DNA of 64,000 nucleotides, taken from Sulfurovum sp. (GTDB lineage: Bacteria; Campylobacterota; Campylobacteria; Campylobacterales; Sulfurovaceae). The stretch is from positions 9,712-73,711 of the forward strand of contig JALWTA010000010.1 in the NCBI GenBank assembly GCA_027082955.1, written 5' to 3'. The position numbers and the translations under genes were made by a program. Positions 3,470 through 39,183 of the stretch are shown here, in pieces (the stretch's first letter is position 1; each line of letters starts with the position of its first letter). The notes under the pieces are model-generated. The model saw nothing but the letters and a program-made list of their open reading frames with translations, did not search any database and was not told the DNA's origin.

Positions 3470-4786
3470 CTAGTACGCCCCATCTCGCTTCAATACAACT
3501 TTGATTGTTTTTATGAGGATGACAATATCCAGCCAAAGTGACCAGTTGGAGACATACCATTTATCTGTTTTGACGCGGTAGTCATAGTCGGTATCACTGC
3601 GTCCACTTACCTGCCAAAGACCTGTAATCCCGGGTTTGACCATGAAATAGTATTCGGCGTCTTCTTTATAATAACGGTCTATCTCTTCCTGAATGACAGG
3701 ACGTGGACCGACAAAGTGCATTTCCCCTTTCAGAACATTGAAGATTTGTGGCAGTTCATCAAGTGATGTTTTGCGTAGGAAAGCTCCGATTTTGGTAACC
3801 CTTGGATCACGTTTAAGTTTATACGAACTCTCCCATTCCGCTTTTGCTTCAGGATCTTCTTTTAGAAGTTGGTCAAGCCGTTCTTTTGCATCGGCATACA
3901 TACTGCGAAATTTATAGGTAGGAATGACTTTACCGCCCTGACCGATGCGGTTATGGGTAAAAAAGATCGGACCCTTGGATTCTGTTTTGATCAGCAAAGC
4001 AAAGATACCGATGGCTGGGAGTACCAAAGGAAGCATAAAAAGGGCAAGAAGATAGTTATAGGTTTGTTGAAAAATCTTTCTGTAGGTACTTTTTAAACGG
4101 TTCTGATAGACAATAAGGTTGGTGCGAGTATTGAAGAGTTCATAAATATGAGAATGAGTTAGATCGTAGTCGTCCATCAACGGTACAAAGATGACTTCAT
4201 GTTTTTGTTTAATCTGACAGGAGAGTACAGTTTTGAGTGCTTGTGGATTACTTCCCTGTGAATTGACAAAGATCGTTGCAGGCTCTTCCCCTTTTTTGGG
4301 ACGTACATATCCTAGATAGGGATTACCGTATATTTCATCGGTAAGAAAAGGGTCATTGCCGTAAATAGCTGCTTTTTTACGCCAAAGCCCCAGTTTGAAA
4401 AGCAGTTTTTTGGTTATGTTTTTGGCAATCGGTATAAACATAACCATGAAAATAAAAGTGAATCCAATGACAAGTCTGGAGTAGTCTTCTATGGACTTTG
4501 TCATCGCAAGATATGCGAAAACAAGTATTGCCGAAAAGGTGATCGCTTTGAATATCAATCGTATTTCATGCCAAAAATCATACCGGTAGGTGTAGATCCC
4601 TTCATAGGCAAGCAGTACAATGGGAATGATATAAATTGGATAAAAGTGCAAATAGGTACTGCATGGAATGGTATGAAGGTATTCGACAGGGATGATGTCT
4701 CTGAGTACATAGGCTGCGAAAAGGGAGAGGAAGATCATTGTCGCATCCAGCAGAATAAAAATGATCTTTGCGACAATATCTTTCAC
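3470..4786 (-). CDS. Polyprenyl-phosphate hexose-1-phosphate transferase, WbaP-like large phosphoglycosyltransferase
   Basis: 438 aa. N-terminal TM helices are followed by a C-terminal bacterial sugar transferase domain with KFRSM, DELPQ, GPRP and GITGLWQVSGRS. Confidence 0.85.
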   Translation of the reverse strand: MKDIVAKIIFILLDATMIFLSLFAAYVLRDIIPVEYLHTIPCSTYLHFYPIYIIPIVLLAYEGIYTYRYDFWHEIRLIFKAITFSAILVFAYLAMTKSIEDYSRLVIGFTFIFMVMFIPIAKNITKKLLFKLGLWRKKAAIYGNDPFLTDEIYGNPYLGYVRPKKGEEPATIFVNSQGSNPQALKTVLSCQIKQKHEVIFVPLMDDYDLTHSHIYELFNTRTNLIVYQNRLKSTYRKIFQQTYNYLLALFMLPLVLPAIGIFALLIKTESKGPIFFTHNRIGQGGKVIPTYKFRSMYADAKERLDQLLKEDPEAKAEWESSYKLKRDPRVTKIGAFLRKTSLDELPQIFNVLKGEMHFVGPRPVIQEEIDRYYKEDAEYYFMVKPGITGLWQVSGRSDTDYDYRVKTDKWYVSNWSLWLDIVILIKTIKVVLKRDGAY

Positions 4787-4901: not shown

Positions 4902-5183
4902 TTATTTTCGGATAATTTGCGCCTCGCCTGCAATAAGGGTAACAGTGGATTCGTTATGTCCGTCGGTATGGCTAATGGTGATCTCTGCATTGTCAGTAGT
5001 CTTCACAACTTTGTCACCCGGATAGACCGTATAGGATTGATTTGGCTGCATATCGATCTGCGATGGTCCCAAGGAGCCAAGGGAGGAAGAACCGCTTCCG
5101 TCTGCAGATGTTCCTCCACCGCCACCACCGCATCCCTGCAGAAGCAGCAGTGCTGTTGTTGTGATTACCAAATAACGTATCAT
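4902..5183 (-). CDS. Small Gly/Ser-rich lipoprotein, function unknown
   Basis: 93 aa. The signal peptide ends in the lipobox-like LLQGC, followed by GGGGGGTSADGSGSSS. It starts 13 nt after the upstream SGNH gene, so it is probably co-transcribed. Confidence 0.5.
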   Translation of the reverse strand: MIRYLVITTTALLLLQGCGGGGGGTSADGSGSSSLGSLGPSQIDMQPNQSYTVYPGDKVVKTTDNAEITISHTDGHNESTVTLIAGEAQIIRK

Positions 5184-5195
5184 GCTTGTTCCTTT

Positions 5196-6062
5196 CTAAA
5201 ACTGGATACCGGTATCGGGTATCTCTGTGGTAAACGTGACGCTGCCGGCTGTATCGTCATAGCTTACATCGATAATGTATTGCCGTGCAACTAGTGATGT
5301 CGGGAAGGCACGAAGATTATCGTTAAAGGTGCTGTTTTGCATAATGGCATTGAACCACACATTTGCTATTTTATAGTATCCGTTATCATTAGGATGTGTA
5401 TTGTCTGCGTAATCGGAGGAGGTGAGTCCTGCATCATTATACATATCGACAATCACAATGTCATCCCCCTGGGCAATACGCTGCTGAAGCATATCGTTGA
5501 GGCGTCGGTTAAAGATAGGAATCCTTCCGTCAGGTTCTTTTCTGTCAATGATGAGTGCGACAAATACTTTGACATGTTTTGAATAGGTGACCTCATACTG
5601 GTCAATAGCATTTAAAATATCGGCTACACCCTGCGGGTTAGTGGTTGTTCGGTCATTGGTCCCTATGTGGAGCAGAACCATATCGGGTTGGCTGTTGACC
5701 ATGTAGTCGTAGGCATGTTCTGCAATGTCATATGTAGTCCAGCCCGGATGTCCCTCATTTTCCGGATCGAATGGCGGTGTGATATCTTGACCTGCAATCT
5801 GTGAGCCGACGAAATCGGCTGCAAATCCGGCATCCTGCAGTTTATACCAGAGATAATTCCGGTATCCGCTTCGCTGCCCAGCAGGACGTGGATGGTCGGA
5901 GTCGGCATAGGTGTCATCATAGGTAATGGAATCACCAAGCGGCATAATACGTACAACAGCATGTGCCGCTGCGGAAAGAAAAGCTAAAATCAAAAATATT
6001 TTTAAATAACGGAGACCTGACATACTGAAAAGCAACCTTTTTAATTTTAAATATAAGTGCAT
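5196..6062 (-). CDS. Secreted SGNH/GDSL-family hydrolase (candidate O-acetyl esterase)
   Basis: 288 aa with a signal-peptide-like N-terminus. The true start may be the internal Met at about 6023. SGNH blocks are GDSIT (I), GTND (III) and DNTHPND (V, DxxH). Confidence 0.75.
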   Translation of the reverse strand: MHLYLKLKRLLFSMSGLRYLKIFLILAFLSAAAHAVVRIMPLGDSITYDDTYADSDHPRPAGQRSGYRNYLWYKLQDAGFAADFVGSQIAGQDITPPFDPENEGHPGWTTYDIAEHAYDYMVNSQPDMVLLHIGTNDRTTTNPQGVADILNAIDQYEVTYSKHVKVFVALIIDRKEPDGRIPIFNRRLNDMLQQRIAQGDDIVIVDMYNDAGLTSSDYADNTHPNDNGYYKIANVWFNAIMQNSTFNDNLRAFPTSLVARQYIIDVSYDDTAGSVTFTTEIPDTGIQF

Positions 6063-6125
6063 AGAATAATATAGAAACCTTACTAAATTCCCCCTTATCC
6101 TAACCCTGTATTAAAAAAAAATGAC

Positions 6126-6131
6126 TATAAT
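6126..6131 (+). promoter_or_regulatory. Candidate -10 box TATAAT for MBOAT copy 1, preceded by an A9 tract
   Basis: A consensus TATAAT lies 26 nt upstream of the TTG start at 6158. An A9 run (6113-6121) lies immediately upstream. This is the only intergenic gap feeding the plus-strand block from 6158 to 14189. Confidence 0.4.
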
Positions 6132-6152
6132 TGCCTAAAAATAAACGGGATA

Positions 6153-7342
6153 CGCCCTTGCTGTTCAACTCCTACGCATTCATTTTTTTCTTTCTGCCGG
6201 TAGTTTTTGCTGTTTATTTTTATCTTAACCAGAGACGGCTGACAGAGGCAGGCAAAGCCTTTTTGGTCGTAGCGTCTCTTTTTTTCTACGCCTGGTGGAA
6301 TGTAAGCTACCTGCCGCTGATACTGGTGTCGATGGTGGTCAACTATGCAATAGGAAGAGAACTGGCACGGCACCAAAAGAACAGAAGAAGCTACTCTCCC
6401 AAAAAACTGCTTGCCGCAGGTGTCGTGTTCAACCTTGGACTGCTGGGATACTACAAATATATGGATTTTTTCCTCGAGAACGTCAACCGCATATTCCATA
6501 GCCATATCCCTCTGCTGCACCTGGCACTGCCGCTTGCGATCAGCTTCTATACCTTCCAGCAGATCTCCTACCTCGTAGACAGTTACAGAGAAGAGACCAA
6601 AGAGTATGACTTTCTTAACTATGCACTCTTTGTGACCTTCTTCCCCCAACTGATCGCAGGGCCTATTGTTCACCATGCAGAGATGATGCCGCAGTTTGCC
6701 AAGACAAGGAACAAAGTAAAGCACTATTACAATATCGCTCTGGGGCTCTTTGTCTTTTCTATGGGGCTGTTCAAAAAAGTGATCATTGCAGATACATTTG
6801 CACAGTGGGCGACCCAGGGGTTCGATGTGTCAAAAGAGCTTAATATGCTCGAAGGATGGGTCACTTCACTCTCCTATACCTTCCAGCTCTACTTTGACTT
6901 CAGCGGCTATACCGATATGGCGATCGGTGCCGCACTGCTGTTCAATATCAAACTGCCGATCAACTTCTTCTCTCCCTACAAGGCAGTCAGTATTCAGGAT
7001 TTCTGGAGGAGATGGCATATTACCCTTTCACGCTTTTTGAAAGATTACCTCTATATTCCGCTTGGCGGGAACAGAAAAGGCAAAATGCGTACCTATATAA
7101 ACCTCTTTGTCACCTTTTTGCTCGGGGGTATCTGGCATGGGGCAGGATGGACTTTTGTCTTTTGGGGCACACTGCACGGCGCGGCACTGGTGATACACCG
7201 TTTCTGGCAGCAGATGGGTATGAAGATGCCTAAGATCCTTGGATGGTTCATTACTTTTAACTTTATCAATATCGCATGGGTCTTTTTCCGGGCAAACAGC
7301 TTTCATGATGCCTTGAAGGTCTTGAAGGGAATGTTCTTGGGT
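6153..7342 (+). repeat. Direct repeat copy 1 (1,190 bp), identical to 11191-12380
   Basis: I compared the two stretches base by base and found no mismatch. All sense and antisense ORFs inside the two copies are identical in the supplied track. Confidence 0.9.
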
Positions 7343-7612
7343 ACGTTTGTCTACCCGGCGGGACTGCCTTTTGCAGACATGGTCAAGCATTGGGGCGCTA
7401 TTGTAGGGAAGTGGAGCTATCCGTTCCTGAAAGAACCGATGATAGGTTATTGGCTTCTTGCCGGTCTGGTTGTCGTACTCTTTTTCCCCAACTCAATGCA
7501 ACTCAAAGAACGCTTCAAAACGAACAGCTGGTACCTGATGTTAACGGTACTCTTTTTCCTTTCGGTCTTTTTTCTGTACAGAAAGAGCGAATTTATCTAT
7601 TTTAACTTTTAA
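6158..7612 (+). CDS. MBOAT-family membrane O-acyltransferase (AlgI/DltB/PatA-like), copy 1
   Basis: I chose TTG 6158, which gives MLFNSYAFIFFFLP. That is the typical family start and equals the start of copy 2. The ORF track extends to TTG 6131. The protein is polytopic, with the MBOAT His in GGIWHGAGW and a C-terminal SEFIYFNF. Confidence 0.85.
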   Translation: MLFNSYAFIFFFLPVVFAVYFYLNQRRLTEAGKAFLVVASLFFYAWWNVSYLPLILVSMVVNYAIGRELARHQKNRRSYSPKKLLAAGVVFNLGLLGYYKYMDFFLENVNRIFHSHIPLLHLALPLAISFYTFQQISYLVDSYREETKEYDFLNYALFVTFFPQLIAGPIVHHAEMMPQFAKTRNKVKHYYNIALGLFVFSMGLFKKVIIADTFAQWATQGFDVSKELNMLEGWVTSLSYTFQLYFDFSGYTDMAIGAALLFNIKLPINFFSPYKAVSIQDFWRRWHITLSRFLKDYLYIPLGGNRKGKMRTYINLFVTFLLGGIWHGAGWTFVFWGTLHGAALVIHRFWQQMGMKMPKILGWFITFNFINIAWVFFRANSFHDALKVLKGMFLGTFVYPAGLPFADMVKHWGAIVGKWSYPFLKEPMIGYWLLAGLVVVLFFPNSMQLKERFKTNSWYLMLTVLFFLSVFFLYRKSEFIYFNF

Positions 7613-7623
7613 GGAGACGTAGC

Positions 7624-8589
7624 GTGACACCTAAAACATACCTCAAACGTCTCTTTGGCGCTTTGGCACTTATCTTCTTTGTTGCTGTTGGATATGTTGC
7701 CTATTTTAATACCTATTACCCTGTTCCGATCACAGATCATATCTCATTTGATGCTAAGCTGAAGTTCGCTAGAGAGAAGATAGACCCCGACGGAGTGGAT
7801 ACACTCATTATAGGTTCATCGATCGGTTTGAACGATCTGCTTGGCACCGAACTGGAAAGGCACTCAAAGCATATTCACAAAGCATTGAACTTTTCTGTTT
7901 ATGGTGCGACCACCCTTCAGGCGGAACAGATTATGGCGCTTATGGATGCCTTTCCTCATTTGAAACGGATCATCTACTCCGTACAGTACTCGGATATGCC
8001 GCACCTATGGAAGTTTAAAGACTATCATCCCAAAACATTGGTAAAATATATTCGTCATGAGCTGAATCCTTTTGCCTATTTGAAACTGCTCTTTGATGCC
8101 TGCAATAACCTGGAATTCTGTTATGAACGTCAGAAAAAGTGGGTTCCCGACCATATGCGGACCAATACGTTCGAGTCGCTGATCTTTGATCCAAGCGGCA
8201 GTGTACCGCTGCATATTTACGGCAAAGATATTATTTGGCACCGGTGGCATCTGCCTCATCCGGGTATCATGCACAGCGAATCGTTCCGGGCGGTTGGGCG
8301 AATGGCAAAAAAGGCACAAGCGCACGGCATCCGTTTTTATGTTGTACATCAGCCCTATCGGAAACCGCTGTATGACACACATAAATCGGTAAGAGATGCC
8401 ATGGCATATTTTGATGCCAAGGTAAAGGCGGCAATGCAGCCGTATAACGGAAAACTCATCCGCATTCAACCGCTTCATCTGGGCGATGCCTATTTTGCAG
8501 ACCGGACGCACCTCAATGACAAAGGCAGTCCGGTGGTTTCGGCCTATGTTGCTAAACAGATAGACAGACTTGAAGATCAAGACCATTAA
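7624..8589 (+). CDS. Membrane-anchored periplasmic SGNH/DltD/AlgJ-like protein, putative acyl-transfer partner of MBOAT copy 1
   Basis: 321 aa. GTG start 7 nt after AAGGAG. It has one N-terminal TM helix, a candidate nucleophile in LIIGSSIG and a DxxH block (ADRTHLNDKG) near the C-terminus. Its position directly downstream of an MBOAT gene matches the algI-algJ, dltB-dltD and patA-patB arrangement. Confidence 0.5.
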   Translation: MTPKTYLKRLFGALALIFFVAVGYVAYFNTYYPVPITDHISFDAKLKFAREKIDPDGVDTLIIGSSIGLNDLLGTELERHSKHIHKALNFSVYGATTLQAEQIMALMDAFPHLKRIIYSVQYSDMPHLWKFKDYHPKTLVKYIRHELNPFAYLKLLFDACNNLEFCYERQKKWVPDHMRTNTFESLIFDPSGSVPLHIYGKDIIWHRWHLPHPGIMHSESFRAVGRMAKKAQAHGIRFYVVHQPYRKPLYDTHKSVRDAMAYFDAKVKAAMQPYNGKLIRIQPLHLGDAYFADRTHLNDKGSPVVSAYVAKQIDRLEDQDH

Positions 8590-8599
8590 GGAGAGAACT

Positions 8600-9172
8600 A
8601 TGCAATTTACACGAACGAAGATCGAAGATGTGATCATCATTGATCCTGTAGTACATGGAGATGAGAGAGGCTATTTTGTGGAAACGTTCCGTCAGGACAA
8701 ACTGGAAGATTTTCTTGGTTTTAAAGTCAATTTTTGTCAGGACAATGAGTCTAAAAGCAGCAAAGGTGTGTTGAGAGGGCTGCACTATCAGCTGACACCG
8801 GCAGCACAGACGAAACTTGTGCGGGTGATCAAAGGACGCGTTTTGGATGTGGCAGTCGATATTCGAAAGGGCAGTCCGACATTTGGAGAGTATGTTGCAG
8901 TTGAACTCAACGAAGAGAACAAACGGCAGCTTTTTGTACCAAGAGGCTTTGCCCACGGGTTTGTTGTGCTTGAGGATGATACGGTCTTTGCCTATAAAGT
9001 AGATAATTACTATTCTCCGGAAAATGACAAGGGGATCGCTTTTGATGACCCTGCCATAGGCATAGATTGGCAGATAGACAAAGCATTGCTGAAACTTTCG
9101 GACAAAGATACAAAACAGCCGCTTCTAAAAGATGCTGACCTCTTTAGCTATGGAGAGAATCTTTATGCGTAA
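8600..9172 (+). CDS. rfbC: dTDP-4-dehydrorhamnose 3,5-epimerase
   Basis: The ATG at 8600 gives MQFTRTKIEDVIIIDPVVHGDERGYFVETF. Cupin motifs RGLHYQ, KLVRVxxGxVxDVAVDxR and VPxGFAHGF are present. The ORF-track start at 8570 is probably a spurious extension. Confidence 0.9.
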   Translation: MQFTRTKIEDVIIIDPVVHGDERGYFVETFRQDKLEDFLGFKVNFCQDNESKSSKGVLRGLHYQLTPAAQTKLVRVIKGRVLDVAVDIRKGSPTFGEYVAVELNEENKRQLFVPRGFAHGFVVLEDDTVFAYKVDNYYSPENDKGIAFDDPAIGIDWQIDKALLKLSDKDTKQPLLKDADLFSYGENLYA

Positions 9173-11189
9173 ACATATTCTTATTACCGGTGCGAACGGA
9201 CAGCTTGGAGGTGAATTCCGTTCTCTGGTGGACAACCGGGAACGTTTTGATACCTCCGATCACTATTTTTTCACCGATAGAGAAACACTGGATATTACCG
9301 ACAAAGAGGCTGTTGAAAACTATGTGATGCAGCACAATATTGATACGATCATCAACTGTGCTGCCTATACGGCGGTCGATAAAGCTGAGGAGGAGGAAGC
9401 ACTTGCCTATCTTATTAATCGTGATGCGGTCAGAAACCTGGCAGAAATTGCCAAAAAATATGATATACATCTGATCCATATCTCTACAGATTATGTGTTT
9501 GACGGTACAAGCCATACCCCTTTGTGTGAAACAGACAGTGTTAACCCCCAAGGTGTCTATGCCAAATCAAAATATGAAGGTGAAGCGGCTATCAGAGAAA
9601 TTGCACCTAAAGGTGCAATGATCATACGTACCTCATGGATCTACAGCAGCATGGGGCACAACTTTGTCAAAACAATGCTGCGCGTGGGCAGTGAACGGGA
9701 TGAAATACGTGTTGTGTGTGACCAGATAGGGACGCCAACCTATGCAAGAGATCTTGCGAGGGCAATTCTTACGATCATTGCATCAGAGAGCCAGAGCGAT
9801 GAAGTCAAAACGTATCACTACAGCAATGAAGGGAACTGCTCCTGGTACGATTTCGCACAGGCGATCTTTGAGATCGCACAGGTTGACTGCCGTGTTACTC
9901 CCATCAGTACCCATGAGTATCCGACACCGGCAAAACGTCCTTCTTACAGTGTTCTCAACAAAGATAAGATCAAATATGAGTATGGTCTTGACATCCCCTA
10001 CTGGAGAGATTCACTCAGGTCCTGTATCTCGCTGCTGGACTTCAAAGAGGTCAAGCGTTACAAGATCGGTATTATTGGTTCAGGTTTTATTGCCAACGGA
10101 TTGGCAAAACTGCTGCTGCAGCATCCTGACTATGAATTGAAAGCGGTATTGACCCGAAGTGATTTAAGCAAGCGCAGTGATTTTGTCAAACCTGAGGTAT
10201 TGACCAATGACCTTGAGGTATTGCTTGATACGTGTGATTTGATCGTAGAATGCAGCGGAGATGCCATCTATGCAACCGAGACGATCGACAGAATCATCAA
10301 AGAGGACATACCGGTTGTGACGATGAACTCAGAGTTTCATGTGACTACAGGTTCTTACTTTGTGGACAAAGGGTTGGTTACGGAAGCCGAGGGGGATCAG
10401 CCCGGTGTCGAGGCTATTTTGTATGAAGAGGCGCTGGCAATGGGCTTTAGACCATTGGCATTTGTCAATATCAAAGGTTTTCTGAATGAAAATCCGACAA
10501 GAGAAGAGATGGAGTACTGGGGTGGACGCTCAAATCTCTCCCTGGAAATGGTAACTTCGTTTACGGACGGAACAAAGGTACAGATAGAACAGGCACTTGT
10601 TGCCAATGGTCTTGGCGGATGTATTGCACAGGAGGGGCTGCTTAAGCTGAAAGATGACGACATGCTTCATGGCGGTACTATTTTGGCGGACAAGGCTAAG
10701 GAACTGGGCTGTCCGGTCAGTGACTATGTGCTCTCTCCAAAACTGCCTGCCGGTGTTTTTTTGGTGGTAGAACATGATGAAGAGCAGGCAGGATCACTGC
10801 GTTACTACAAACTTGGGGAAGGTCCCTACTATGTTTTGGAGCGTACTTATCATCTTTGCCATCTTGAGATCATTAAAACGATCAAACGGGTACTGGGCGG
10901 TGGTGGTGTCCTGCTAAATAACGGCAGTGATCCGAAATTGAGTGTCGCAGCCATTGCAAAACATGACATTATGCCCGGTGATACGCTGAAAAAGGGCATC
11001 GGCAGTTTCGATGTACGCGGCGAAGCGGTATATATTGAGAAGCATCCTGACCATGTGCCCATAGGACTGCTTGCTGATGCGACGTTTGTGCGTGAGGTTA
11101 AAGAAGGGCAGATCGTAACCTTTGCAGATGTGGAACTTCCGGAGAGTCTGGCGCTGGATATCTGGAAGCGTATGCACATCAAAGGCTGA
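9165..11189 (+). CDS. Fusion protein: dTDP-4-dehydrorhamnose reductase (RmlD) N-terminal domain plus a homoserine-dehydrogenase-like NAD-binding domain ending in a SAF domain (COG4091-like)
   Basis: ATG 9165 overlaps the rfbC stop (ATGCGTAA). Residues 1 to about 295 are RmlD-like: ILITGANGQLG, STDYVFDG, YAKSKYEGE, PTPAKRPSYSVL. A second Rossmann motif KIGIIGSGFIANG then follows, with EGDQPG and a C-terminal beta-clip-like SAF segment (IMPGDTL...VKEGQIVTFADVE). Confidence 0.7.
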   Translation: MRKHILITGANGQLGGEFRSLVDNRERFDTSDHYFFTDRETLDITDKEAVENYVMQHNIDTIINCAAYTAVDKAEEEEALAYLINRDAVRNLAEIAKKYDIHLIHISTDYVFDGTSHTPLCETDSVNPQGVYAKSKYEGEAAIREIAPKGAMIIRTSWIYSSMGHNFVKTMLRVGSERDEIRVVCDQIGTPTYARDLARAILTIIASESQSDEVKTYHYSNEGNCSWYDFAQAIFEIAQVDCRVTPISTHEYPTPAKRPSYSVLNKDKIKYEYGLDIPYWRDSLRSCISLLDFKEVKRYKIGIIGSGFIANGLAKLLLQHPDYELKAVLTRSDLSKRSDFVKPEVLTNDLEVLLDTCDLIVECSGDAIYATETIDRIIKEDIPVVTMNSEFHVTTGSYFVDKGLVTEAEGDQPGVEAILYEEALAMGFRPLAFVNIKGFLNENPTREEMEYWGGRSNLSLEMVTSFTDGTKVQIEQALVANGLGGCIAQEGLLKLKDDDMLHGGTILADKAKELGCPVSDYVLSPKLPAGVFLVVEHDEEQAGSLRYYKLGEGPYYVLERTYHLCHLEIIKTIKRVLGGGGVLLNNGSDPKLSVAAIAKHDIMPGDTLKKGIGSFDVRGEAVYIEKHPDHVPIGLLADATFVREVKEGQIVTFADVELPESLALDIWKRMHIKG

Positions 11190-11190
11190 T

Positions 11191-12380
11191 CGCCCTTGCT
11201 GTTCAACTCCTACGCATTCATTTTTTTCTTTCTGCCGGTAGTTTTTGCTGTTTATTTTTATCTTAACCAGAGACGGCTGACAGAGGCAGGCAAAGCCTTT
11301 TTGGTCGTAGCGTCTCTTTTTTTCTACGCCTGGTGGAATGTAAGCTACCTGCCGCTGATACTGGTGTCGATGGTGGTCAACTATGCAATAGGAAGAGAAC
11401 TGGCACGGCACCAAAAGAACAGAAGAAGCTACTCTCCCAAAAAACTGCTTGCCGCAGGTGTCGTGTTCAACCTTGGACTGCTGGGATACTACAAATATAT
11501 GGATTTTTTCCTCGAGAACGTCAACCGCATATTCCATAGCCATATCCCTCTGCTGCACCTGGCACTGCCGCTTGCGATCAGCTTCTATACCTTCCAGCAG
11601 ATCTCCTACCTCGTAGACAGTTACAGAGAAGAGACCAAAGAGTATGACTTTCTTAACTATGCACTCTTTGTGACCTTCTTCCCCCAACTGATCGCAGGGC
11701 CTATTGTTCACCATGCAGAGATGATGCCGCAGTTTGCCAAGACAAGGAACAAAGTAAAGCACTATTACAATATCGCTCTGGGGCTCTTTGTCTTTTCTAT
11801 GGGGCTGTTCAAAAAAGTGATCATTGCAGATACATTTGCACAGTGGGCGACCCAGGGGTTCGATGTGTCAAAAGAGCTTAATATGCTCGAAGGATGGGTC
11901 ACTTCACTCTCCTATACCTTCCAGCTCTACTTTGACTTCAGCGGCTATACCGATATGGCGATCGGTGCCGCACTGCTGTTCAATATCAAACTGCCGATCA
12001 ACTTCTTCTCTCCCTACAAGGCAGTCAGTATTCAGGATTTCTGGAGGAGATGGCATATTACCCTTTCACGCTTTTTGAAAGATTACCTCTATATTCCGCT
12101 TGGCGGGAACAGAAAAGGCAAAATGCGTACCTATATAAACCTCTTTGTCACCTTTTTGCTCGGGGGTATCTGGCATGGGGCAGGATGGACTTTTGTCTTT
12201 TGGGGCACACTGCACGGCGCGGCACTGGTGATACACCGTTTCTGGCAGCAGATGGGTATGAAGATGCCTAAGATCCTTGGATGGTTCATTACTTTTAACT
12301 TTATCAATATCGCATGGGTCTTTTTCCGGGCAAACAGCTTTCATGATGCCTTGAAGGTCTTGAAGGGAATGTTCTTGGGT
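11191..12380 (+). repeat. Direct repeat copy 2 (1,190 bp), identical to 6153-7342
   Basis: Same evidence as copy 1. The offset is exactly 5,038 bp. The repeat begins 1 nt after the TGA of the rfbD-fusion gene. Confidence 0.9.
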
Positions 12381-12680
12381 GATACAGATATGAAAACATA
12401 TCTTCAAGGACTCTATGACCAAGCAAATCCAATTGCACAATGGTTCAATCTTAATAGTGGTGCCTACCATGCACCGTTCAATCTGTTCGCTTTGGCAATG
12501 GTAATGGTGGGATTGTTGATTGTCCTGTTCTTCCCAAACTCCAATGAGCTTGCCGGTATTTTTCATGCGAAGAAGCGTGTTTCTTGGCGATATTATCTGT
12601 TATCGGTACTGCTGTTTGGTACCGCATTGGCAATGATGAGTGTTTCGCATGGATCTGAATTTCTCTATTTTAATTTTTAG
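11196..12680 (+). CDS. MBOAT-family membrane O-acyltransferase, copy 2 (identical to copy 1 for 395 codons, divergent last ~100 codons)
   Basis: 494 aa with a TTG start. It equals copy 1 through VLKGMFLG, then diverges and ends SEFLYFNF. Confidence 0.85.
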   Translation: MLFNSYAFIFFFLPVVFAVYFYLNQRRLTEAGKAFLVVASLFFYAWWNVSYLPLILVSMVVNYAIGRELARHQKNRRSYSPKKLLAAGVVFNLGLLGYYKYMDFFLENVNRIFHSHIPLLHLALPLAISFYTFQQISYLVDSYREETKEYDFLNYALFVTFFPQLIAGPIVHHAEMMPQFAKTRNKVKHYYNIALGLFVFSMGLFKKVIIADTFAQWATQGFDVSKELNMLEGWVTSLSYTFQLYFDFSGYTDMAIGAALLFNIKLPINFFSPYKAVSIQDFWRRWHITLSRFLKDYLYIPLGGNRKGKMRTYINLFVTFLLGGIWHGAGWTFVFWGTLHGAALVIHRFWQQMGMKMPKILGWFITFNFINIAWVFFRANSFHDALKVLKGMFLGDTDMKTYLQGLYDQANPIAQWFNLNSGAYHAPFNLFALAMVMVGLLIVLFFPNSNELAGIFHAKKRVSWRYYLLSVLLFGTALAMMSVSHGSEFLYFNF

Positions 12681-12689
12681 GAGCATGGC

Positions 12690-14189
12690 GTGAGCAAGAA
12701 ACGGTATATCTTTATGATGCTGGCAGGAAGTCTGCTCTTTTTGCTGGTGCTGCCTGTGTTCAATTATCTCCATGACCAGTGGCGCGTACTCCATCGGGAT
12801 TTTGCCTATGCCTATGATGATATTGCGATCAACAAATCCTACTTGAAAACAGTCTATCTTTTGGCACATCCAAACCGGTATGATACACTGTTGTTTGGTT
12901 CTTCCAGAAATGCAGCTTTTGTAGAGACCGATATTGCACCGCATGCCTACAATGCCTATGCTGATTTTGGTGTAATAGGACAACACCTGCATACGCTTGA
13001 GATTTTGCTGGGACACGGCTTGGCTTTGAAAGAAGTGTGGATAGGGATCAATGATTTTGATATATGGAAAGATCCTAAAGATTTTGAAAAGGACTATTCC
13101 AAGCGGGTGTATCATGAAGATATAGAGGGGATATTTGACTTTTACAGACTTTATCTGTTTAAGCCTGTTGACAACAATGACCTTGCCATTATGAAAGGCA
13201 AATTCAAATTGGCTCCAAGTAACCGAATTTACCGTAAAGCGCTTGACAAACACAGACAAACATTGATAGACAAAGAGAAAAGTTTGCAAGAAAAAGGTAT
13301 GCGCTGGCGTAAAAAACTTACTTCGACTGCCGCGACACTGCTTGGCTACAAGGATGATCCCAAACAGTACAGAATCTCAAAAAGTATCGATGAGATCAGA
13401 AGGATCAAGCGTCTTTGTCAAAAACATCATGTTAAAACGGTTTTTTTCTTCTACCCGGCATTCTACAAAACCTATATGATGTACAACCAGTCCAGAATAG
13501 AAACTTTCAAACGTAAACTGGCAGAGGTGACAGATTTCTACGATTTTTATCGTCTTGATGCGACTGCAATGGATGAAACAAAATGGACAGATACCAGCCA
13601 CTTTGTCTATAGCGTCGCCTTTCAAATGGTTCAGGATATTAAACATGGGAAGCATCTTGTAACACACAGTAACTGTGAAAGCGTATTGAGACAAGAGCGT
13701 CAAATGGCTACAGAACAGTTACTGCGTAAACAACTTCCAATACCGTATGTAATGCGTTTTAACGGTACGATCCTGCCAAGTGGAACCGATGTACTATTTG
13801 ATATGAAAAAGGGTAGTTATGTCCCAAATGTACAGACCAGAGTGCAGACTGACACTGAGGGCATCAAGGTGAAAAGTCTTGGTACTGATCCAAATTTGTT
13901 GTTTGGTCCGGTGCTTTCAAAAACGCAGAATGTGGTGTTACATTGTGAGATGACAAGTCAATACAAGACACTTTTTCAGCTTTTTTACAAGGTTGGCAAG
14001 GATGCCCGTTTCAATGAACATGATGCGGTTAAATTCGGGTTACACAAAGGGCTGAACCGTTTTAACCTGCTGATCCCTTCTGCTTGGCTAAGGTATGGTT
14101 TCCGCATGGATCCGGGGCAGAAACCCGGTGATTATTTGATCAAGAAAATGGAGATATTTGGAGAGAAAAAATGTGCTTCAGGAGAGTGA
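12690..14189 (+). CDS. Membrane-anchored periplasmic SGNH/DltD/AlgJ-like protein with an extra C-terminal beta-rich module, putative partner of MBOAT copy 2
   Basis: 499 aa. GTG start after AGGAG, with the same junction layout as partner 1. It has an N-terminal TM helix, LLFGSSRN and a TDTSHF (DxxH) block. Residues from about 385 to 492 form a module also seen in the 695-aa and 615-aa proteins. Confidence 0.5.
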   Translation: MSKKRYIFMMLAGSLLFLLVLPVFNYLHDQWRVLHRDFAYAYDDIAINKSYLKTVYLLAHPNRYDTLLFGSSRNAAFVETDIAPHAYNAYADFGVIGQHLHTLEILLGHGLALKEVWIGINDFDIWKDPKDFEKDYSKRVYHEDIEGIFDFYRLYLFKPVDNNDLAIMKGKFKLAPSNRIYRKALDKHRQTLIDKEKSLQEKGMRWRKKLTSTAATLLGYKDDPKQYRISKSIDEIRRIKRLCQKHHVKTVFFFYPAFYKTYMMYNQSRIETFKRKLAEVTDFYDFYRLDATAMDETKWTDTSHFVYSVAFQMVQDIKHGKHLVTHSNCESVLRQERQMATEQLLRKQLPIPYVMRFNGTILPSGTDVLFDMKKGSYVPNVQTRVQTDTEGIKVKSLGTDPNLLFGPVLSKTQNVVLHCEMTSQYKTLFQLFYKVGKDARFNEHDAVKFGLHKGLNRFNLLIPSAWLRYGFRMDPGQKPGDYLIKKMEIFGEKKCASGE

Positions 14190-14225
14190 AGCTGTTTTAG
14201 TCTTATTACCCTTCAGCTTTACTAT

Positions 14226-15410
14226 TCATATATGGAATGACGCGTTGTTTTTGGCTTTTCTGAACCTGCCGCGTTTCCCAAAAGTGATTCCCGGACGTTC
14301 GATGAAGAGATAGGTCAGGGAAGCAGTCAGCACCACGAGCACAACGATAATAGGCATCATATAGGTGTGCTGTGTAGCGCTGATGAGTTTCAGGTCAACT
14401 ACCTCAAATACTGTAAAGAGAATGTAGATGATTGCACCGTGCAGGAGGTAGATGCTGTAGCTTATCTCTCCAAGCAGCAAAGAAGCTTTTTTATGCATCA
14501 GTCCGAAGAGGGAATTGCCCCAGGCAATGGCGATAAAAAAGAGTGCTACCAGCGAAATGGGCAGGGGATCGTATATTTTTTTGTAAAATACCGCATATAG
14601 CAGGGCGATGGTGATTGCTGCGGAGACAAATGCATTGTCAATATAGCGAATGGGAATGCGCTGAATATGCCCGGAGAGCACTGCGGCAACCCCTCCGATG
14701 ACAAAAAAGACAAGATGGATCGTCTCAAATGCGTAAAAGGCATGATTTTCATAAAAATAAACGGCACCGCCAATTGCCAGCAGCAGAGCGATCCATCGGT
14801 TAAGGGTAATGACAAGTGCGATTAGCGGCAAGGAGAGGTAAAAAAGCCATTCATATTTGAGCGTCCAGTCCACTCCGGCAATGATCAGAGGAGTATGGTC
14901 GTGCGTATGAAGATTACCGCCATGAAAAAAAAGCCAATGGGTATATTGTTCCACCAGAGAAGAGATGTCGATACCGTGACGGTATTGCGGTTGCATGAAA
15001 ACCACGACACTGATGACAAAAATGGCAAACAGATAGAGTGGATAGATCCTGAAAATACGGGATTTGTAGAGTTTGATCCAGTCTGTTTTGTGTCTGTCTT
15101 TCATGATCTTGGCAGTAAAGAGATAGCCTGTGATCATAAAGAAGATCATCACACCTATCAGTCCAATATTCTGGAAATAGACCTCATGCGGGCGCCACCA
15201 GTGGGTCGTGTTCTTCCAGTACCATGTCAGCATGAAGTGGTGGGCGAAGACCGAGAGGGCAAGGTAGCCTCGCAGTCCGTCTATTGCACCGTAACGGCCA
15301 GTACGTTCATGCAGAAAAGCAAAACGCGAATGTCTGACAACAAGGCTGCCAAGCAGGTAGCTGACTACCAGCATCGTCATAAAAAATCCGATCTTTACAA
15401 TATCATCCAA
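14226..15410 (-). CDS. Acyltransferase family 3 (OafA/WecH-like) membrane O-acyltransferase
   Basis: 394 aa, about 10 TM helices. AT3 hallmark IDGLRGYLALSVFAHH near the N-terminus. Confidence 0.8.
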   Translation of the reverse strand: MDDIVKIGFFMTMLVVSYLLGSLVVRHSRFAFLHERTGRYGAIDGLRGYLALSVFAHHFMLTWYWKNTTHWWRPHEVYFQNIGLIGVMIFFMITGYLFTAKIMKDRHKTDWIKLYKSRIFRIYPLYLFAIFVISVVVFMQPQYRHGIDISSLVEQYTHWLFFHGGNLHTHDHTPLIIAGVDWTLKYEWLFYLSLPLIALVITLNRWIALLLAIGGAVYFYENHAFYAFETIHLVFFVIGGVAAVLSGHIQRIPIRYIDNAFVSAAITIALLYAVFYKKIYDPLPISLVALFFIAIAWGNSLFGLMHKKASLLLGEISYSIYLLHGAIIYILFTVFEVVDLKLISATQHTYMMPIIVVLVVLTASLTYLFIERPGITFGKRGRFRKAKNNASFHI

Positions 15411-15459
15411 AGGGGCTCTTTCAGGTTTTGGAGAAGTATAGCGAAATTTGTTGAGAAAA

Positions 15460-15468
15460 TGGTATAAT
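15460..15468 (+). promoter_or_regulatory. Extended -10 promoter element TGgTATAAT for the 695-aa membrane protein gene
   Basis: An exact TGnTATAAT lies 26 nt upstream of ATG 15495 (SD GGGGAG) in the divergent intergenic region. Confidence 0.45.
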
Positions 15469-15494
15469 GGCGAAGCTTTAAGGCGGGGAGAGAC

Positions 15495-17582
15495 ATGTTG
15501 CTACGGGAACTTTGGAAACGTAAAAAAGAATTTTTTATTGTATTTGGCTACTTTTTTTTGCTTGTCTCTGGCATGATCATGACACATCATACCTTTTTGG
15601 GTATTCAGGACGAGGCTCAGCTTCAGGCCACACTTAAAGCAGCAGATGTCTACAACTATATGACCAGCTATCCTCTCGCTCTGTTTGGCGGATGGCTTTA
15701 TACCCATTTCCCCCATGGACAGTGGTACAGTGTCATCATGACCTTCTATACGCTCTTTATGACACTGGTTATGAGTGGCTATATCATATTGCTTGATATC
15801 GAAAACAGATGGGGAAGATGGTTTATTAAAGGGCTTTTGCTTGCGCTTTTTACTCTTCTGACGGTCTATACACTGCTGGAGGTCGATGTGACCTCTCCGA
15901 CACTCTTGCTTATCGCTTTGGCAGTGCCGTTGGTCAAACGTCATCAGGTATGGTTTTGGTTTATTTTTTGGGTAGCGAGCTTTTTACGCGAACAGATCAT
16001 CTTTTCGGTCATACCGCTGGTTGCACTGGCATATGTTATCGGCTTTGACAGAACCTATTTTACGAACAAGCGCAAGATTGTACTTTCATTGCTGTTCGTT
16101 GCGGGAATTCTGTTCAACCATTTTTCCTATAAACTTGACAAAGGATACGCACAATGGATGGAGTTTACTGAAGCACGTGCGTTTTTTACCGATTTTAACG
16201 GCGGATACAGTCCTGTTTTGACACCCGATGAATATCATCTTGCCAAAACATGGTGGCTGCTTGATCGGGAACTCTACCCTGTAGCCAAGATCCCGAAAGC
16301 CGCGGGAAGCAAGGTCGATCTTGTCAAAGAGCGTTTTTTGCAAAATCATCCGAAATGGCAAGTCAGAGCAGTACTGATCAGACATCCTGAGATCAAAATA
16401 CTCTTTGCGCTCTCTTTGCTCATTGCGTTGCTCTACAGGAGCTGGTTGCGTTTTGGGGCATACGCACTGTTCGGTATTGGACTTATTGTGCTGTTGATTG
16501 TCAAAGATGTCGAACGGGTGACATTTCCGGTGCTTATTATGTGGTGGGTACTGTTGGCAACGGATCTGTGGCGCATCAGGGGCAATGTGTGGCTGCGGCG
16601 ATCTGCGGTGGGTGCAGTGGTGCTTATTGTGGCATGGTTGTGCTACTTTACCTACCGGACACTTCCCTTGGACAGGATCACCCATTTTGCCCAGAGAGAA
16701 GCGCTGCATAAAGAGTTTAAGGATATTATCGCTCGTAACCACATGCAACTGGAGATCACATCCGGATACCCGGCATCATGGGGCTTGCTGGTGGAAGCGT
16801 TGATGGAAAATCACCTGTTCGACGAAGCCAACTGGGCAGATTTCTACCATGATCTGCTGCTCTCAGGGTGGTTTACACAAAGCCCTATCTGCTACCGGCA
16901 GCATCAGATCAGTGCAGATGGGGTCAAACGGAAATATGCCACCTACTATGACTGGCTGATGGATCCAAATACCGGTATCATCGGTTCAAAAGGGGAACGC
17001 AGGCATGTTCATCCGTTTTTGGCAACGAAACTTATGGCACTCTATGATAAAAAACATCCAAAAAAAGGATTCCGTCATATTCCTGAGGTGGTCGATGAGA
17101 GTAAACATTTCATTATTCACCGTATCGTACAGACAGATGCCTTTATTACACGTGTTTCCCCTGTAAAAGATATAAAGCAGTATACGCCGTTGTGGCGTAT
17201 ATCCTCTGCATCTTCACTCAGACCCCATCACATGGCATGGAAAGAGGGAATACTGCATGCTACAGACAAAGATCCGTGGTTTTTCGTGACACTGCCGCAT
17301 AGCAAAAGCCGTTTTGTGCTGCTGGATGTTGACATAGAGATTCCAAGGGCGCATGACGAGATGCAACTCTTCTATAAAACATCGGACAAACGTCCCTACA
17401 ACGAGATCGATTCTGTAAAAATAAGACTGAAAAAGGGCTGGAACCATTTCCAACTGAAGATCCCAAGAGAATACCTTCAAAGAACAGTCAGAATAGATCC
17501 TTCCAATTATGCGGGGGAATACCGTGTGCGTTCTATAGCACTCTATCCGTATGCGGAAGAGAATGCTTCTATGCAAAAGTGA
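15495..17582 (+). CDS. Polytopic membrane protein with a large C-terminal extracytoplasmic domain, function unknown (candidate GtrC/GT-C-like transferase)
   Basis: 695 aa. About 10 TM helices span residues 1-390, followed by a soluble region ending in the shared beta-rich module (residues about 578-686). I recognised no family motif. The functional guess rests on context only. Confidence 0.3.
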   Translation: MLLRELWKRKKEFFIVFGYFFLLVSGMIMTHHTFLGIQDEAQLQATLKAADVYNYMTSYPLALFGGWLYTHFPHGQWYSVIMTFYTLFMTLVMSGYIILLDIENRWGRWFIKGLLLALFTLLTVYTLLEVDVTSPTLLLIALAVPLVKRHQVWFWFIFWVASFLREQIIFSVIPLVALAYVIGFDRTYFTNKRKIVLSLLFVAGILFNHFSYKLDKGYAQWMEFTEARAFFTDFNGGYSPVLTPDEYHLAKTWWLLDRELYPVAKIPKAAGSKVDLVKERFLQNHPKWQVRAVLIRHPEIKILFALSLLIALLYRSWLRFGAYALFGIGLIVLLIVKDVERVTFPVLIMWWVLLATDLWRIRGNVWLRRSAVGAVVLIVAWLCYFTYRTLPLDRITHFAQREALHKEFKDIIARNHMQLEITSGYPASWGLLVEALMENHLFDEANWADFYHDLLLSGWFTQSPICYRQHQISADGVKRKYATYYDWLMDPNTGIIGSKGERRHVHPFLATKLMALYDKKHPKKGFRHIPEVVDESKHFIIHRIVQTDAFITRVSPVKDIKQYTPLWRISSASSLRPHHMAWKEGILHATDKDPWFFVTLPHSKSRFVLLDVDIEIPRAHDEMQLFYKTSDKRPYNEIDSVKIRLKKGWNHFQLKIPREYLQRTVRIDPSNYAGEYRVRSIALYPYAEENASMQK

Positions 17583-17952
17583 AGTAGCGGTTAAGCAGAT
17601 AGAAAAGTGTACTGTAAATGACCATCCCGGCAAAAAAAGCGATATCCGTTGCTATAAGATGGTGTTCAACGATAAAGTGCAGACCGGCATAGCTTGCACC
17701 ATAGGAGATGCCAAATGAGAGTAAAAAGAGCGTAAACTCTTTTAGCTTGTTTTTGTTGCTGAAAAAGACGAACTGCCGATTGAGAAAAAAGCTGATGATG
17801 ATGCCAATGACGTAGCTTAGGAAATAGGAGAGCGAGTAGCTTAGTCCTACCAGATGAAAAAAAATGAGGATGACGGCATATCCTATAATGGTATTGACCA
17901 CACCGACCGCTACAAAACGCAGAAAGGTTTTGTCGATAAGAGGGAGGTTCAT
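17569..17952 (-). CDS. GtrA-family small membrane protein (polyprenyl-phosphate-sugar translocation)
   Basis: 127 aa, 4 TM helices. GtrA-like N-terminus FLRFVAVGVVNTIIGY. ATGA overlap with the upstream ydjC-like gene. Confidence 0.8.
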   Translation of the reverse strand: MNLPLIDKTFLRFVAVGVVNTIIGYAVILIFFHLVGLSYSLSYFLSYVIGIIISFFLNRQFVFFSNKNKLKEFTLFLLSFGISYGASYAGLHFIVEHHLIATDIAFFAGMVIYSTLFYLLNRYFTFA

Positions 17953-18758
17953 GATCGTCCTATAGAGAGTACAGCATCCAGCTCCACACGTCTGTCTGAA
18001 GAAATACGGTAGTCTTTTTCCCCATCATCATAGAAGTGTACTTCTGCATCGAGTTCAGGATAGCTTGGATGCACCATGGCTTCAAACGGTATAGACATTG
18101 TTTGAAGCTTCTGGAGAATTTCTTTGCCGACCACTCCGGTATACAGGATAGAGTAGAACGCACGCTCACCGTAGCGGTCTTCGTAACGGCTGTCTATCAT
18201 ACTGAAAGTGCGCAGCAGCAGATATTTTATGATGCCGCCATTGAGGATAAAATTGAAACGTTTGGAGAGGCGGAAGGATTGCAGCGGATTCTCTTTGATA
18301 AGTCTGATCCGATCGATACCGTAACGTTCTGCGAGTTTCACTGCTATGGGGTAAAGATGAGGAATGAGATGGACATGGCGGTGACTGTCAATGTGGGTGA
18401 GGGGGCGTGTAAACCCTGAAAAGGAGAGTACACGCTGGATCTGTGCTTCCCACTCTTTCTCAACCGCTGCAAGAAAATCGGGGTCCTTTTGGGTCAGTAG
18501 TGTTTTGTAGCCGAGATTAAAACAGCCATTCTCATCACAATAGAGAGCATTAGGAAGAAGTGCTTTTCCATAAGTCAGATTCAAGTGCATACCCACACCG
18601 AGTTCAGGACGTTTCAATGCCCCTTGCATCGCCTCATCAAAATAGTCACAGTTTGCCATGATACTGGCATGCGTGATACCGCCTTTATCGTGTCCGTCAA
18701 ATATGGCACGGTTGGCACCAGGAGTCATCCCAAGGTCATCTGCATTGACAATGAGCAT
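17949..18758 (-). CDS. YdjC/ChbG-superfamily carbohydrate deacetylase (NaxD/LgmC-like)
   Basis: 269 aa. It has the YdjC motifs LIVNADDLGMTPGANRAI and THIDSHRHVH. Confidence 0.8.
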   Translation of the reverse strand: MLIVNADDLGMTPGANRAIFDGHDKGGITHASIMANCDYFDEAMQGALKRPELGVGMHLNLTYGKALLPNALYCDENGCFNLGYKTLLTQKDPDFLAAVEKEWEAQIQRVLSFSGFTRPLTHIDSHRHVHLIPHLYPIAVKLAERYGIDRIRLIKENPLQSFRLSKRFNFILNGGIIKYLLLRTFSMIDSRYEDRYGERAFYSILYTGVVGKEILQKLQTMSIPFEAMVHPSYPELDAEVHFYDDGEKDYRISSDRRVELDAVLSIGRS

Positions 18759-38392: not shown

Positions 38393-39183
38393 TAAAGTAC
38401 ATCCGAAAAATGAGGTCGTAGACGTTTAAATGTTTTCATACCTAGTAGGAAGACGATTATTGTAACGGACCAATAATAGAGTGTCATTTCACCTTTTTGC
38501 CAAAACCATTGGTGATAAATCATGCTATCCCTATATCCTTCAATGAGATAAACCATAGGATTGAGTTTGATAATCCAGTGGTATTTTTCCGGTATCATGT
38601 GAATCGACCAAAAGATAGGAGTGAGCCAAAAACCAAATTGTATCAGCATTGCTATGATCTGCCCCATATCTCTAAAAAATACTACTACAGACGAAGTAAT
38701 CCATGAAAGCCCTAGCAGTAAAACAATCATCGCAAACAGATAGTAAAAAACCTGTAACCAGTAGATATTTGGCATATACCCATAATAAAGAAACATACCG
38801 AACATAAAAAGAATAAAAAAAAGATGCACTATCAAAGAGGAAAAAATCGGAATGATTGGAAGTAAACTCACGCGGAATACGATCTTTTTTACAAGATAGC
38901 TATTGGCAATAATCGCATTTGTCGCATTTGTGAGTGCATCGGCAAAGAAAAACCAAGGCAGTATTCCGGTGATCAGCCATAAAATGAAAGGAAAGTTATC
39001 AACAGGTCTCGATTTGAAACCAACTTGAAAAACGAACCAAAAAATCAAAATAGTAGCCAATGGTTGGATAAATGCCCAGAGAATTCCTAAAAAATTTCCT
39101 ACATATTTCTGTTTTATATCATTTTTGATTAATGACCATAAAAGACGCCTATTCTCTGTAATAGAGATGAAATAACTATACAC
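38392..39183 (-). CDS. wzm: Polysaccharide ABC transporter permease (ABC-2 type)
   Basis: 263 aa, 6 TM helices. N-terminus LIKNDIKQKYVGNFLGILWAFIQP is typical of Wzm/KpsM/TagG. Confidence 0.85.
   Translation of the reverse strand: MYSYFISITENRRLLWSLIKNDIKQKYVGNFLGILWAFIQPLATILIFWFVFQVGFKSRPVDNFPFILWLITGILPWFFFADALTNATNAIIANSYLVKKIVFRVSLLPIIPIFSSLIVHLFFILFMFGMFLYYGYMPNIYWLQVFYYLFAMIVLLLGLSWITSSVVVFFRDMGQIIAMLIQFGFWLTPIFWSIHMIPEKYHWIIKLNPMVYLIEGYRDSMIYHQWFWQKGEMTLYYWSVTIIVFLLGMKTFKRLRPHFSDVL

Follow-up and report, generated by a model that had tools for sequence, protein, structure and literature searches.

How can two neighboring genes be identical over most of their length and then differ abruptly? 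This question is raised by a locus in a 64,000-nucleotide (nt) stretch of the genome of Sulfurovum sp. (GenBank assembly GCA_027082955.1, contig JALWTA010000010.1, positions 9,712 to 73,711 of the forward strand), which we call the window and whose first letter is position 1 in the following. The locus carries two genes for acyltransferases of the MBOAT family, MBOAT-1 and MBOAT-2, each followed by a gene for a putative partner protein (partner-1 and partner-2), and the first 395 codons of both MBOAT genes, called the heads here, lie in a perfect direct repeat, whereas the remaining codons, the tails, are only weakly similar. In our analysis, this 1,190-bp repeat is very probably the footprint of recent non-reciprocal homologous recombination, that is, gene conversion, between old MBOAT paralogues, in a concerted evolution that is limited to the catalytic core and recurs among relatives.

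The segments 6153-7342 and 11191-12380 were identical at 1190 of 1190 positions, synonymous sites included, with a mismatch at the first base outside both edges and an immediate loss of alignability past both ends. Both copies are direct and spaced by 5038 bp. The repeat search of the window found no other direct repeat of 40 nt or more and no inverted repeats, and virtually no exact 1190-nt repeat is expected by chance in 64 kb. The 5' edge lies 5 nt upstream of the TTG start codons at 6158 and 11196, which is 1 nt past the TGA (11187-11189) of the preceding rmlD-fusion gene in copy 2, and its 3' edge is the exact end of codon 395 (...VLKGMFLG). Thus, the perfect direct repeat with a period of 5,038 bp, its coverage of the first 395 codons of an MBOAT gene and its start relative to the TTG and TGA codons, all of which had been described in an earlier reading of the letters alone (the sequence-only reading), were reproduced by the comparison of the two copies. 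That reading had also called the gene ends only distantly similar up to a shared SEF(I/L)YFNF, in agreement with our alignment of the tails (89 and 99 amino acids (aa)), which were alignable only over the last ~59 residues with 46% identity and end in SEFIYFNF and SEFLYFNF, respectively. By tblastn and a six-frame motif search of the window, we detected these two MBOAT genes only, and no extra heads or tails.

The position of the 3' edge has a counterpart in the protein architecture. The Pfam MBOAT family (PF03062) matched aa 116-380 of MBOAT-1 and MBOAT-2 with E=1.5e-40 and 1.1e-40, respectively, the NCBIfam DltB model aligned with aa 8-377 at a score under its equivalog cutoff, and the catalytic-His motif WHGA is located at aa 326-329 within the head. 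These domains end (377-380) about 15 residues before the repeat does. Each tail contains two hydrophobic segments and closes with FIYFNF or FLYFNF as its final six residues, and the pattern F-x-Y-x-x-[FYW] was found at the C-terminus of all the complete homologues surveyed (79/79). In PatA/PatB, the MBOAT protein auto-acylates the invariant Tyr of its C-terminal hexapeptide, which passes the acyl group to the SGNH partner, and the C-terminal helices of PatA correspond to DltX, in the Dlt system a separate microprotein, but are fused to the MBOAT protein (JBC 2025, PMC12148441). From the domain ends and this published work, the repeat boundary corresponds to the junction between a DltB-like catalytic core and a DltX-like shuttle tail.

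The two partners showed no significant match in Pfam, NCBIfam or PDB sequences, where only hints of ALGX (E=0.16) and DUF1574 were obtained. The AlphaFold2 models of both proteins (predicted local distance difference test score 94.4) have an SGNH fold and an N-terminal helix (aa 3-31 in partner-1 and 3-27 in partner-2). Foldseek matched both models with probability 1.0 to GDSL esterases, PatB (7tjb, 8tlb) and DltD (3bma, 6pfx, 7dxm), though at modest TM-scores of 0.4-0.65, and the partner-2 model has an extra C-terminal CBM6/16-like beta-sandwich. Alignments of homologues revealed that G-S-S and one His are invariant in both partner families: G64-S65-S66 and D293..H296 in partner-1, where the Asp of D-x-x-H is invariant too, and G70-S71-S72 and H304 in partner-2. 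The gaps between the MBOAT and partner genes are 11 nt for partner-1 and 9 nt for partner-2. In a published AlphaFold-Multimer model, the N-terminal transmembrane (TM) helix of the PatB-type partner touches helices alpha1 and alpha17 of PatA (PMC12148441). Judged by sequence and predicted fold, both gene pairs of the window have the features of MBOAT-SGNH acyltransferase pairs of the PatA/PatB type. Separately, the C-terminal ~100 aa of partner-2 (13857-14159) are 32% identical to the C-terminus (17244-17546) of a 695-aa protein encoded at 15495-17582, which is without family match and shares this putative glycan-binding domain with partner-2.

The window pairs share with the PatA/PatB-type pairs, and with AlgI/AlgJ/AlgX, WssH/WssI and DltB/DltX/DltD, the MBOAT core with a catalytic His, the F-x-Y-x-x-F acyl-shuttle hexapeptide past extra C-terminal TM helices and a following gene whose SGNH product is anchored in the membrane and has a Ser/His(/Asp) triad. 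Unlike those systems, there are two tandem modules in one putative operon within an O-antigen/rhamnan-like polysaccharide locus rather than a system for peptidoglycan, alginate or cellulose, neither partner falls into a Pfam family, and partner-2 carries the CBM-like domain. In Bacillus, PatA1/PatB1 and PatA2/PatB2 are two MBOAT/partner pairs that acetylate the secondary cell-wall polysaccharide, and they resemble the present case in that more than one pair per genome acts on surface glycans. To our knowledge, the Bacillus pairs are not tandem modules with an identical core, and we know of no homogenization of their heads.

Is the pair young, as the zero divergence could imply, or old? To answer this from relatives, we compared homologous loci (labeled L), all of which are, like the window, short-read metagenome assemblies. 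By its homologues, the source organism falls within Campylobacterota, near Sulfurovum-like vent metagenome-assembled genomes (MAGs), and the best head match among GTDB representatives is 79% at the aa level. When tail-1 with partner-1 is called module M1 and tail-2 with partner-2 module M2, each module has orthologues in many metagenomes, and both are present together on L088, L086/L104, L112 and L116. The order is GDSL, MBOAT-M1, partner-1, rmlD fusion, MBOAT-M2, partner-2 on L088; M2, M1, rmlC, rmlD on L086/L104 and L112; and M1, rmlC, rmlD, M2 and a third MBOAT on L116. A window-like synteny (GDSL, MBOAT-1, partner-1, rmlC/D, MBOAT-2, partner-2) is frequent in the two-module relatives. The M1 and M2 heads of these loci have diverged and represent the unconverted state, with nucleotide identities of 71.0% in L088, 76.8% in L086, 74.5% in L112 and 71.6% between head 1 and heads 2 or 3 of L116, and further diverged pairs exist in L007 (76.8%) and L113 (73.7%). 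Since relatives carry both modules with 71-77% heads and the tails form separate clades (see below), the M1/M2 pair is old, and only its heads were recently homogenized.

Other relatives have heads that are nearly identical within the genome. L090, from a sister lineage, is ~82% identical to the window across the locus and has one more gene, PIG-L, between the modules; its two heads share 99.66% identity with each other but only 85% with those of the window, and they match perfectly from -2 to about +1146, followed by three mismatches and a gap near the junction. The heads are 99.67% identical with a perfect stretch of 1173 nt in L022 (a Sulfuricurvum MAG), 97.4% with a perfect stretch from nt 36 to 1149 in L024, and 98.1% over the 158 nt available at a contig end in L096. 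In L020, a Sulfurospirillaceae MAG with rmlD and rmlC between its two MBOAT genes, the heads form a mosaic, with 8% divergence over the first 750 nt, mostly at third codon positions (47 of the codon differences are synonymous and 8 non-synonymous), and then a perfect 427-nt tract up to the head/tail junction. The within-genome head pairs are thus bimodal, seven of them at 94.8% or above and six at 71-77%, and every similarity tract begins 0-15 nt upstream of the start codon and reaches as far as codons ~385-413. As for loci with a single module, L089 has M1 only, and L092 has M2 directly behind an M1-type leader and head, the 55 nt upstream of its MBOAT gene being identical to the M1 leader of L090. 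Three heads were seen in two loci: L116 (3397-14998) has three tandem MBOAT genes, of which heads 2 and 3 are 99.9% identical, and L024 (7511-15981) has, at the contig end, a third head with ~93-95% identity to both others over 300 nt.

With regard to the age of the pair, the sequence-only reading had therefore to be revised in part. It had attributed the repeat to very recent duplication or gene conversion and not to an old paralogue pair. The repeat pattern does recur in related genomes and conversion stands as the best explanation, while the denial of an old pair is contradicted by the 71-77% heads in the same two-module layout, and recent duplication became the less likely of the two events.

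Heads and tails also have different histories in bootstrap neighbor-joining trees of 26 taxa, which we examined together with a head identity matrix. The heads group by genome or lineage, with 100% bootstrap support for the window, L089, L092 and both L090 heads as one clade, and likewise for the M1 and M2 heads of L090 and for the two heads (a and b) of L020 and of L024. The tails, on the other hand, fall into separate clades by module type, supported at 99% for M1 and 88% for M2. Paralogous heads are closer within a genome (100% in the window and 99.66% in L090) than between the two genomes (85%). Within genomes, heads have similarity scores of 0.98-1.00, tails of 0.19-0.28 and partners of 0.02-0.32. 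The nearest neighbors of a tail lie in the same orthologous loci as those of the partner encoded downstream of it, and in a partial Mantel test on 70 MBOAT/partner pairs, tail and partner were correlated when the head was given (r=0.29, permutation p=0.001), while head similarity added little to the prediction of the partner (r=0.09). This correlation fits a docking of the tail with its partner. As a further observation, P0003 (495 aa, JGI) has an M2-like tail and a head 89% identical to that of the M1-type P0012 and 86% to the window head, and may be another head/tail recombinant in another genome.

We propose the following scenario for gene conversion. One MBOAT head would be periodically overwritten by the head of its tandem paralogue in a homology-dependent and non-reciprocal manner, and in the window this would have erased every difference in the catalytic core, from the start codon through codon 395. 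The converted tract would start where the gene starts, since unrelated sequences lie upstream of it (a promoter leader versus the end of the rmlD fusion), and it would end at the core/tail junction because conversion runs only as far as homology. Every conversion would restore homology and ease the next one, while tail and partner would keep diverging as the specificity unit. The tail and its SGNH partner, inherited together, would form an acceptor-specific unit, giving two enzymes with one identical acyl-CoA-using core and two shuttle-tail/SGNH exits. Presumably, the targets of these exits are two positions or sugars, on one glycan or on different ones. In this scenario, we infer the recombination pathway, the acceptor specificities and the docking of tail with partner, while the repeat, the gene order, the folds, the conflicting histories of heads and tails, and the converted and diverged states among relatives are shown.

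Several points weigh against it or limit its reach. The exact identity of 100% could be slightly inflated if one node of the assembly graph was written twice, and one synonymous variant, G to A at window 7126, was found in another assembly of the source population (L081). Trees and identities single out neither copy as the donor: the sister of the window head clade is M2-type (L083/L084, 92% bootstrap) and not M1-type, while the nearest database heads are mostly M1-type (P0007, 88.6% at the aa level). Conversion within the chromosome is indistinguishable from replacement by transformed DNA of a sibling cell. The co-inheritance of tail and partner could also result from mere physical linkage.

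Among the alternatives to conversion, a recent tandem duplication of a whole MBOAT gene, after which the tail and partner of one copy were replaced by horizontally acquired DNA, would explain the zero divergence, which is what a very young duplicate shows, and the tail/partner modules are clearly mobile relative to the heads. However, at least six lineages would each have had to undergo two precise events, with the same breakpoints every time, and the two-module layout with 71-77% heads in the same synteny of relatives means that the layout predates the identity. Moreover, the mosaic of L020, diverged in 5' and perfect in 3', is the signature of a conversion tract and not of a duplication. We consider such a duplication very unlikely.

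The second alternative concerns the function of the identity. The repeat copies are direct, so RecA-type recombination between them would delete or amplify a 5,038-bp unit, as had been predicted from the letters; the direct orientation bears this out, and so does the gene layout, in which the unit holds tail-1, partner-1, rmlC and the rmlD fusion and its loss leaves a head with tail-2 and partner-2. Under the conversion scenario, this proneness to RecA-dependent deletion or amplification would be a by-product of the identical repeats. The predicted deletion product, an M1 leader and head followed by tail-2 and partner-2, is the layout of L092. L089 and L092 indicate that gain and loss of modules via the head has happened among relatives on evolutionary time scales, and the one-step switch of O-acylation specificity and L-rhamnose supply by loss of the unit, which the sequence-only reading had envisaged, seems plausible. 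A short-read junction cannot reveal such a deletion variant because the repeat is longer than a read.

A stronger version would be a selected high-frequency switch (contingency locus), in which the heads are kept identical since recombination toggles or amplifies the acylation/rhamnose module and diversifies the surface glycan. The perfect 1.19-kb direct repeat is an efficient substrate for RecA, the unit includes the sole rmlC of the window in addition to tail-1 and partner-1, L092 is a natural example of the predicted deletion configuration besides the M1-only L089, and head homogenization recurs in several genera. On the other hand, the deletion is irreversible unless the unit is re-acquired, which is not a true toggle, and about half of the tandem pairs are unhomogenized, which argues for episodic neutral conversion rather than maintained identity. 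Neither a site-specific recombinase nor inverted repeats exist in the window: in line with the earlier remark that no recombinase gene is nearby, domains of integrases, invertases or transposases were absent from the scanned open reading frames of at least 150 aa across the whole 64 kb. The dedicated recombinase and short specific sites that mark a programmed DNA switch (site-specific inversion or excision, a shufflon or a phase-variable cassette) are thus missing from the window, and a contingency locus is most unlikely here.

Another idea is that the MBOAT core is a selected recombination platform, kept identical within genomes and species as a portable homology arm for cassettes of tail and SGNH partner, sometimes with sugar genes. 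We regard this as a tentative possibility that is rather unlikely at present. If it is true, RecA and natural transformation would drive the gain, loss, amplification and exchange of cassettes through the core, as a recombinase-free cassette system that diversifies the acylation of surface glycans in vent Campylobacterota. It would also offer a natural domain-swap series, in which the shuttle tail alone dictates the SGNH partner served by the core.

The third alternative is an assembly artefact, in which the population has a single MBOAT head and the tandem was created from collapsed or chimeric strain variants, for example an M1-only and an M2-only strain. The short-read metagenome source, the occurrence of both single-module alleles in relatives (L089 and L092) and the tendency of the relatives' contigs to stop inside heads (L091 and L096) would be in its favor, and so would L081. 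This MAG scaffold (JALVTU010000072.1 of GCA_027024005.1) is 100% identical to window 7216-18589 and is broken within head copy 1, where a 100-N gap (L081:169-268) separates this part from a 168-nt piece with the synonymous difference mentioned above. Nevertheless, the junction between the stop of the rmlD fusion and the head start, which is possible only with a head after module 1, is present in three assemblies and marks one end of a k=31 unitig, which stops exactly 30 nt inside the repeat; the proteins of the locus are also recorded from an NCBI/ENA contig of 109,775 nt. The unitig, from Logan, SRR13622959_127725 (L082, 3,908 nt), is another assembly of the source population and corresponds to window 7313-11220, that is, the unique spacer with exactly 30 nt (k-1) of repeat per side. 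Because L082 is bounded there, both the junction from head to tail-1 and that from the rmlD stop to the head start are sharp edges in the read graph. The tandem L-R-A-R-B is the only path that uses each edge of this graph once. Moreover, L090, L022, L024, L020 and L116 have the same tandem with heads differing at 1-61 sites, so these are not collapsed nodes. Since the same architecture was assembled in other genomes with distinguishable copies, the near-identity of the two heads is not in doubt, and an artefact is extremely unlikely.

Two further candidates were rejected: a pilS-like silent-cassette model, because tblastn and the six-frame motif search turned up no silent or extra MBOAT heads or tails elsewhere in the window, and selection-driven convergence of the heads, because purifying selection cannot make synonymous sites identical.

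The contigs or scaffolds of L081, L091 and L096 end or have N-gaps within MBOAT heads. At such near-perfect repeats of ~1.2 kb, short-read assemblies of these polysaccharide loci break systematically.

Gene conversion of the MBOAT cores resembles the known cases of tufA/tufB, rRNA operons and Helicobacter pylori babA/babB/sabA in that paralogues are closer within a genome than orthologues between genomes, identical tracts are sharply bounded by diverged segments, mosaics occur and no dedicated recombinase is involved. Unlike those cases, the genes encode inner-membrane acyltransferases, the copies are tandem and direct in one putative operon, and the tract takes in all of the catalytic domain but leaves out the specificity part (the tail and the next gene). 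Both MBOAT-SGNH pairs and the concerted evolution of paralogues in bacteria have been established before. Their combination, a core-restricted conversion that recurs in several genera of Campylobacterota with a boundary at the core/shuttle-tail junction, was not found in our literature search, which also yielded no report of gene conversion or concerted evolution in MBOAT or O-acetyltransferase genes. Identical cores with unrelated tails and partners in one cell indicate that the MBOAT core and the shuttle tail with its SGNH partner have repeatedly been treated as separable modules in nature. This lends independent comparative support to the recently proposed acyl-Tyr shuttle mechanism, and it predicts that the last ~90-100 residues set the partner pairing and hence the acceptor specificity. 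The finding also draws attention to a class of near-perfect 1.2-kb repeats at which short-read assemblies of Campylobacterota polysaccharide loci break and which would leave these loci structurally unstable, with the acylation module and rmlC/rmlD gained or lost together.

Table. Positions of the repeat copies, the genes of the acyltransferase locus and other glycan genes in the window.
Feature	Position	Strand	Details
-10-like TATAAT box	6126..6131	+	in the MBOAT-1 leader; direct reading and upstream alignment
Repeat copy 1	6153..7342	+	5-nt leader and codons 1-395 of MBOAT-1; identity, Pfam/NCBIfam
MBOAT-1	6158..7612	+	484 aa, TTG start
Tail-1	7343..7612	+	89 aa, M1-type; loop, two TM segments, FIYFNF (7592-7609)
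Partner-1	7624..8589	+	321 aa; N-terminal TM helix and SGNH-fold domain; no Pfam family
rmlC	8570..9172	+	dTDP-4-dehydrorhamnose 3,5-epimerase; inside the 5,038-bp unit
rmlD fusion	9132..11189	+	685 aa; rmlD with a DRL-type oxidoreductase domain in one protein; stop 6 nt before the MBOAT-2 start
Repeat copy 2	11191..12380	+	same 5 nt and codons 1-395 of MBOAT-2; identity, Pfam/NCBIfam
MBOAT-2	11196..12680	+	494 aa, TTG start
Tail-2	12381..12680	+	99 aa, M2-type; loop, two TM segments, FLYFNF (12660-12677)
Partner-2	12690..14189	+	499 aa; N-terminal TM helix, DltD-like SGNH domain, C-terminal CBM6/16-like beta-sandwich
Phosphoglycosyl transferase, first of two	3470-4786		
RgpF	23028-26201		
Apiosidase-like hydrolase	32523-34211		
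Wzm/Wzt ABC transporter	37061-39183		with Wzt_C domain
Wzz	40672-41529		
Phosphoglycosyl transferase, second of two	45659-46249		
MurJ/Wzx-like flippase	48510-50045		

The two pairs belong to a group of six co-directional genes, MBOAT-1, partner-1, rmlC, rmlD fusion, MBOAT-2 and partner-2, with intergenic gaps of 11, -20, -41, 6 and 9 nt. A leader of ~55 nt upstream of MBOAT-1 is kept in L090, L089 and L092, and with its TATAAT box it is likely the promoter of the six genes, as read from the sequence. The leader and the gene layout suggest one single operon. A scan with the sigma-70 consensus missed the TATAAT leader and gave fewer promoter-like sites than in shuffled sequences. No match was obtained by megablast of 5000-15500 against the PLSDB plasmids or by an Rfam scan of the window at the gathering threshold.

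In its full length of 64 kb, the window is a single, very large region for surface polysaccharides. Among its genes are those for WbaP-type and further phosphoglycosyl transferases, for numerous GT2/GT4 glycosyltransferases, for sugar-nucleotide enzymes and, besides the two MBOAT pairs, for four AT3 acyltransferases, as well as rmlA/rmlB-like genes at 59-61 kb. The region joins an ABC-transporter route with a flippase and Wzz.

In the rmlD-fusion gene, rmlD (dTDP-4-dehydrorhamnose reductase, aa 15-300) is fused in frame to NAD-binding and DRL_cat domains (aa ~310-580), and fusions of 679-691 aa are kept beside module 1 in L086, L088, L089, L090, L096 and L116. This fusion suggests a modified 6-deoxyhexose pathway rather than a plain L-rhamnose one. 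Finally, a divergent gene for a GDSL/SGNH lipase-like protein (5196-6062, minus strand) is located upstream of MBOAT-1 and is syntenic in L001, L004, L088, L089, L090 and L112. Its product may act in the acylation system as a third SGNH protein, possibly an esterase.

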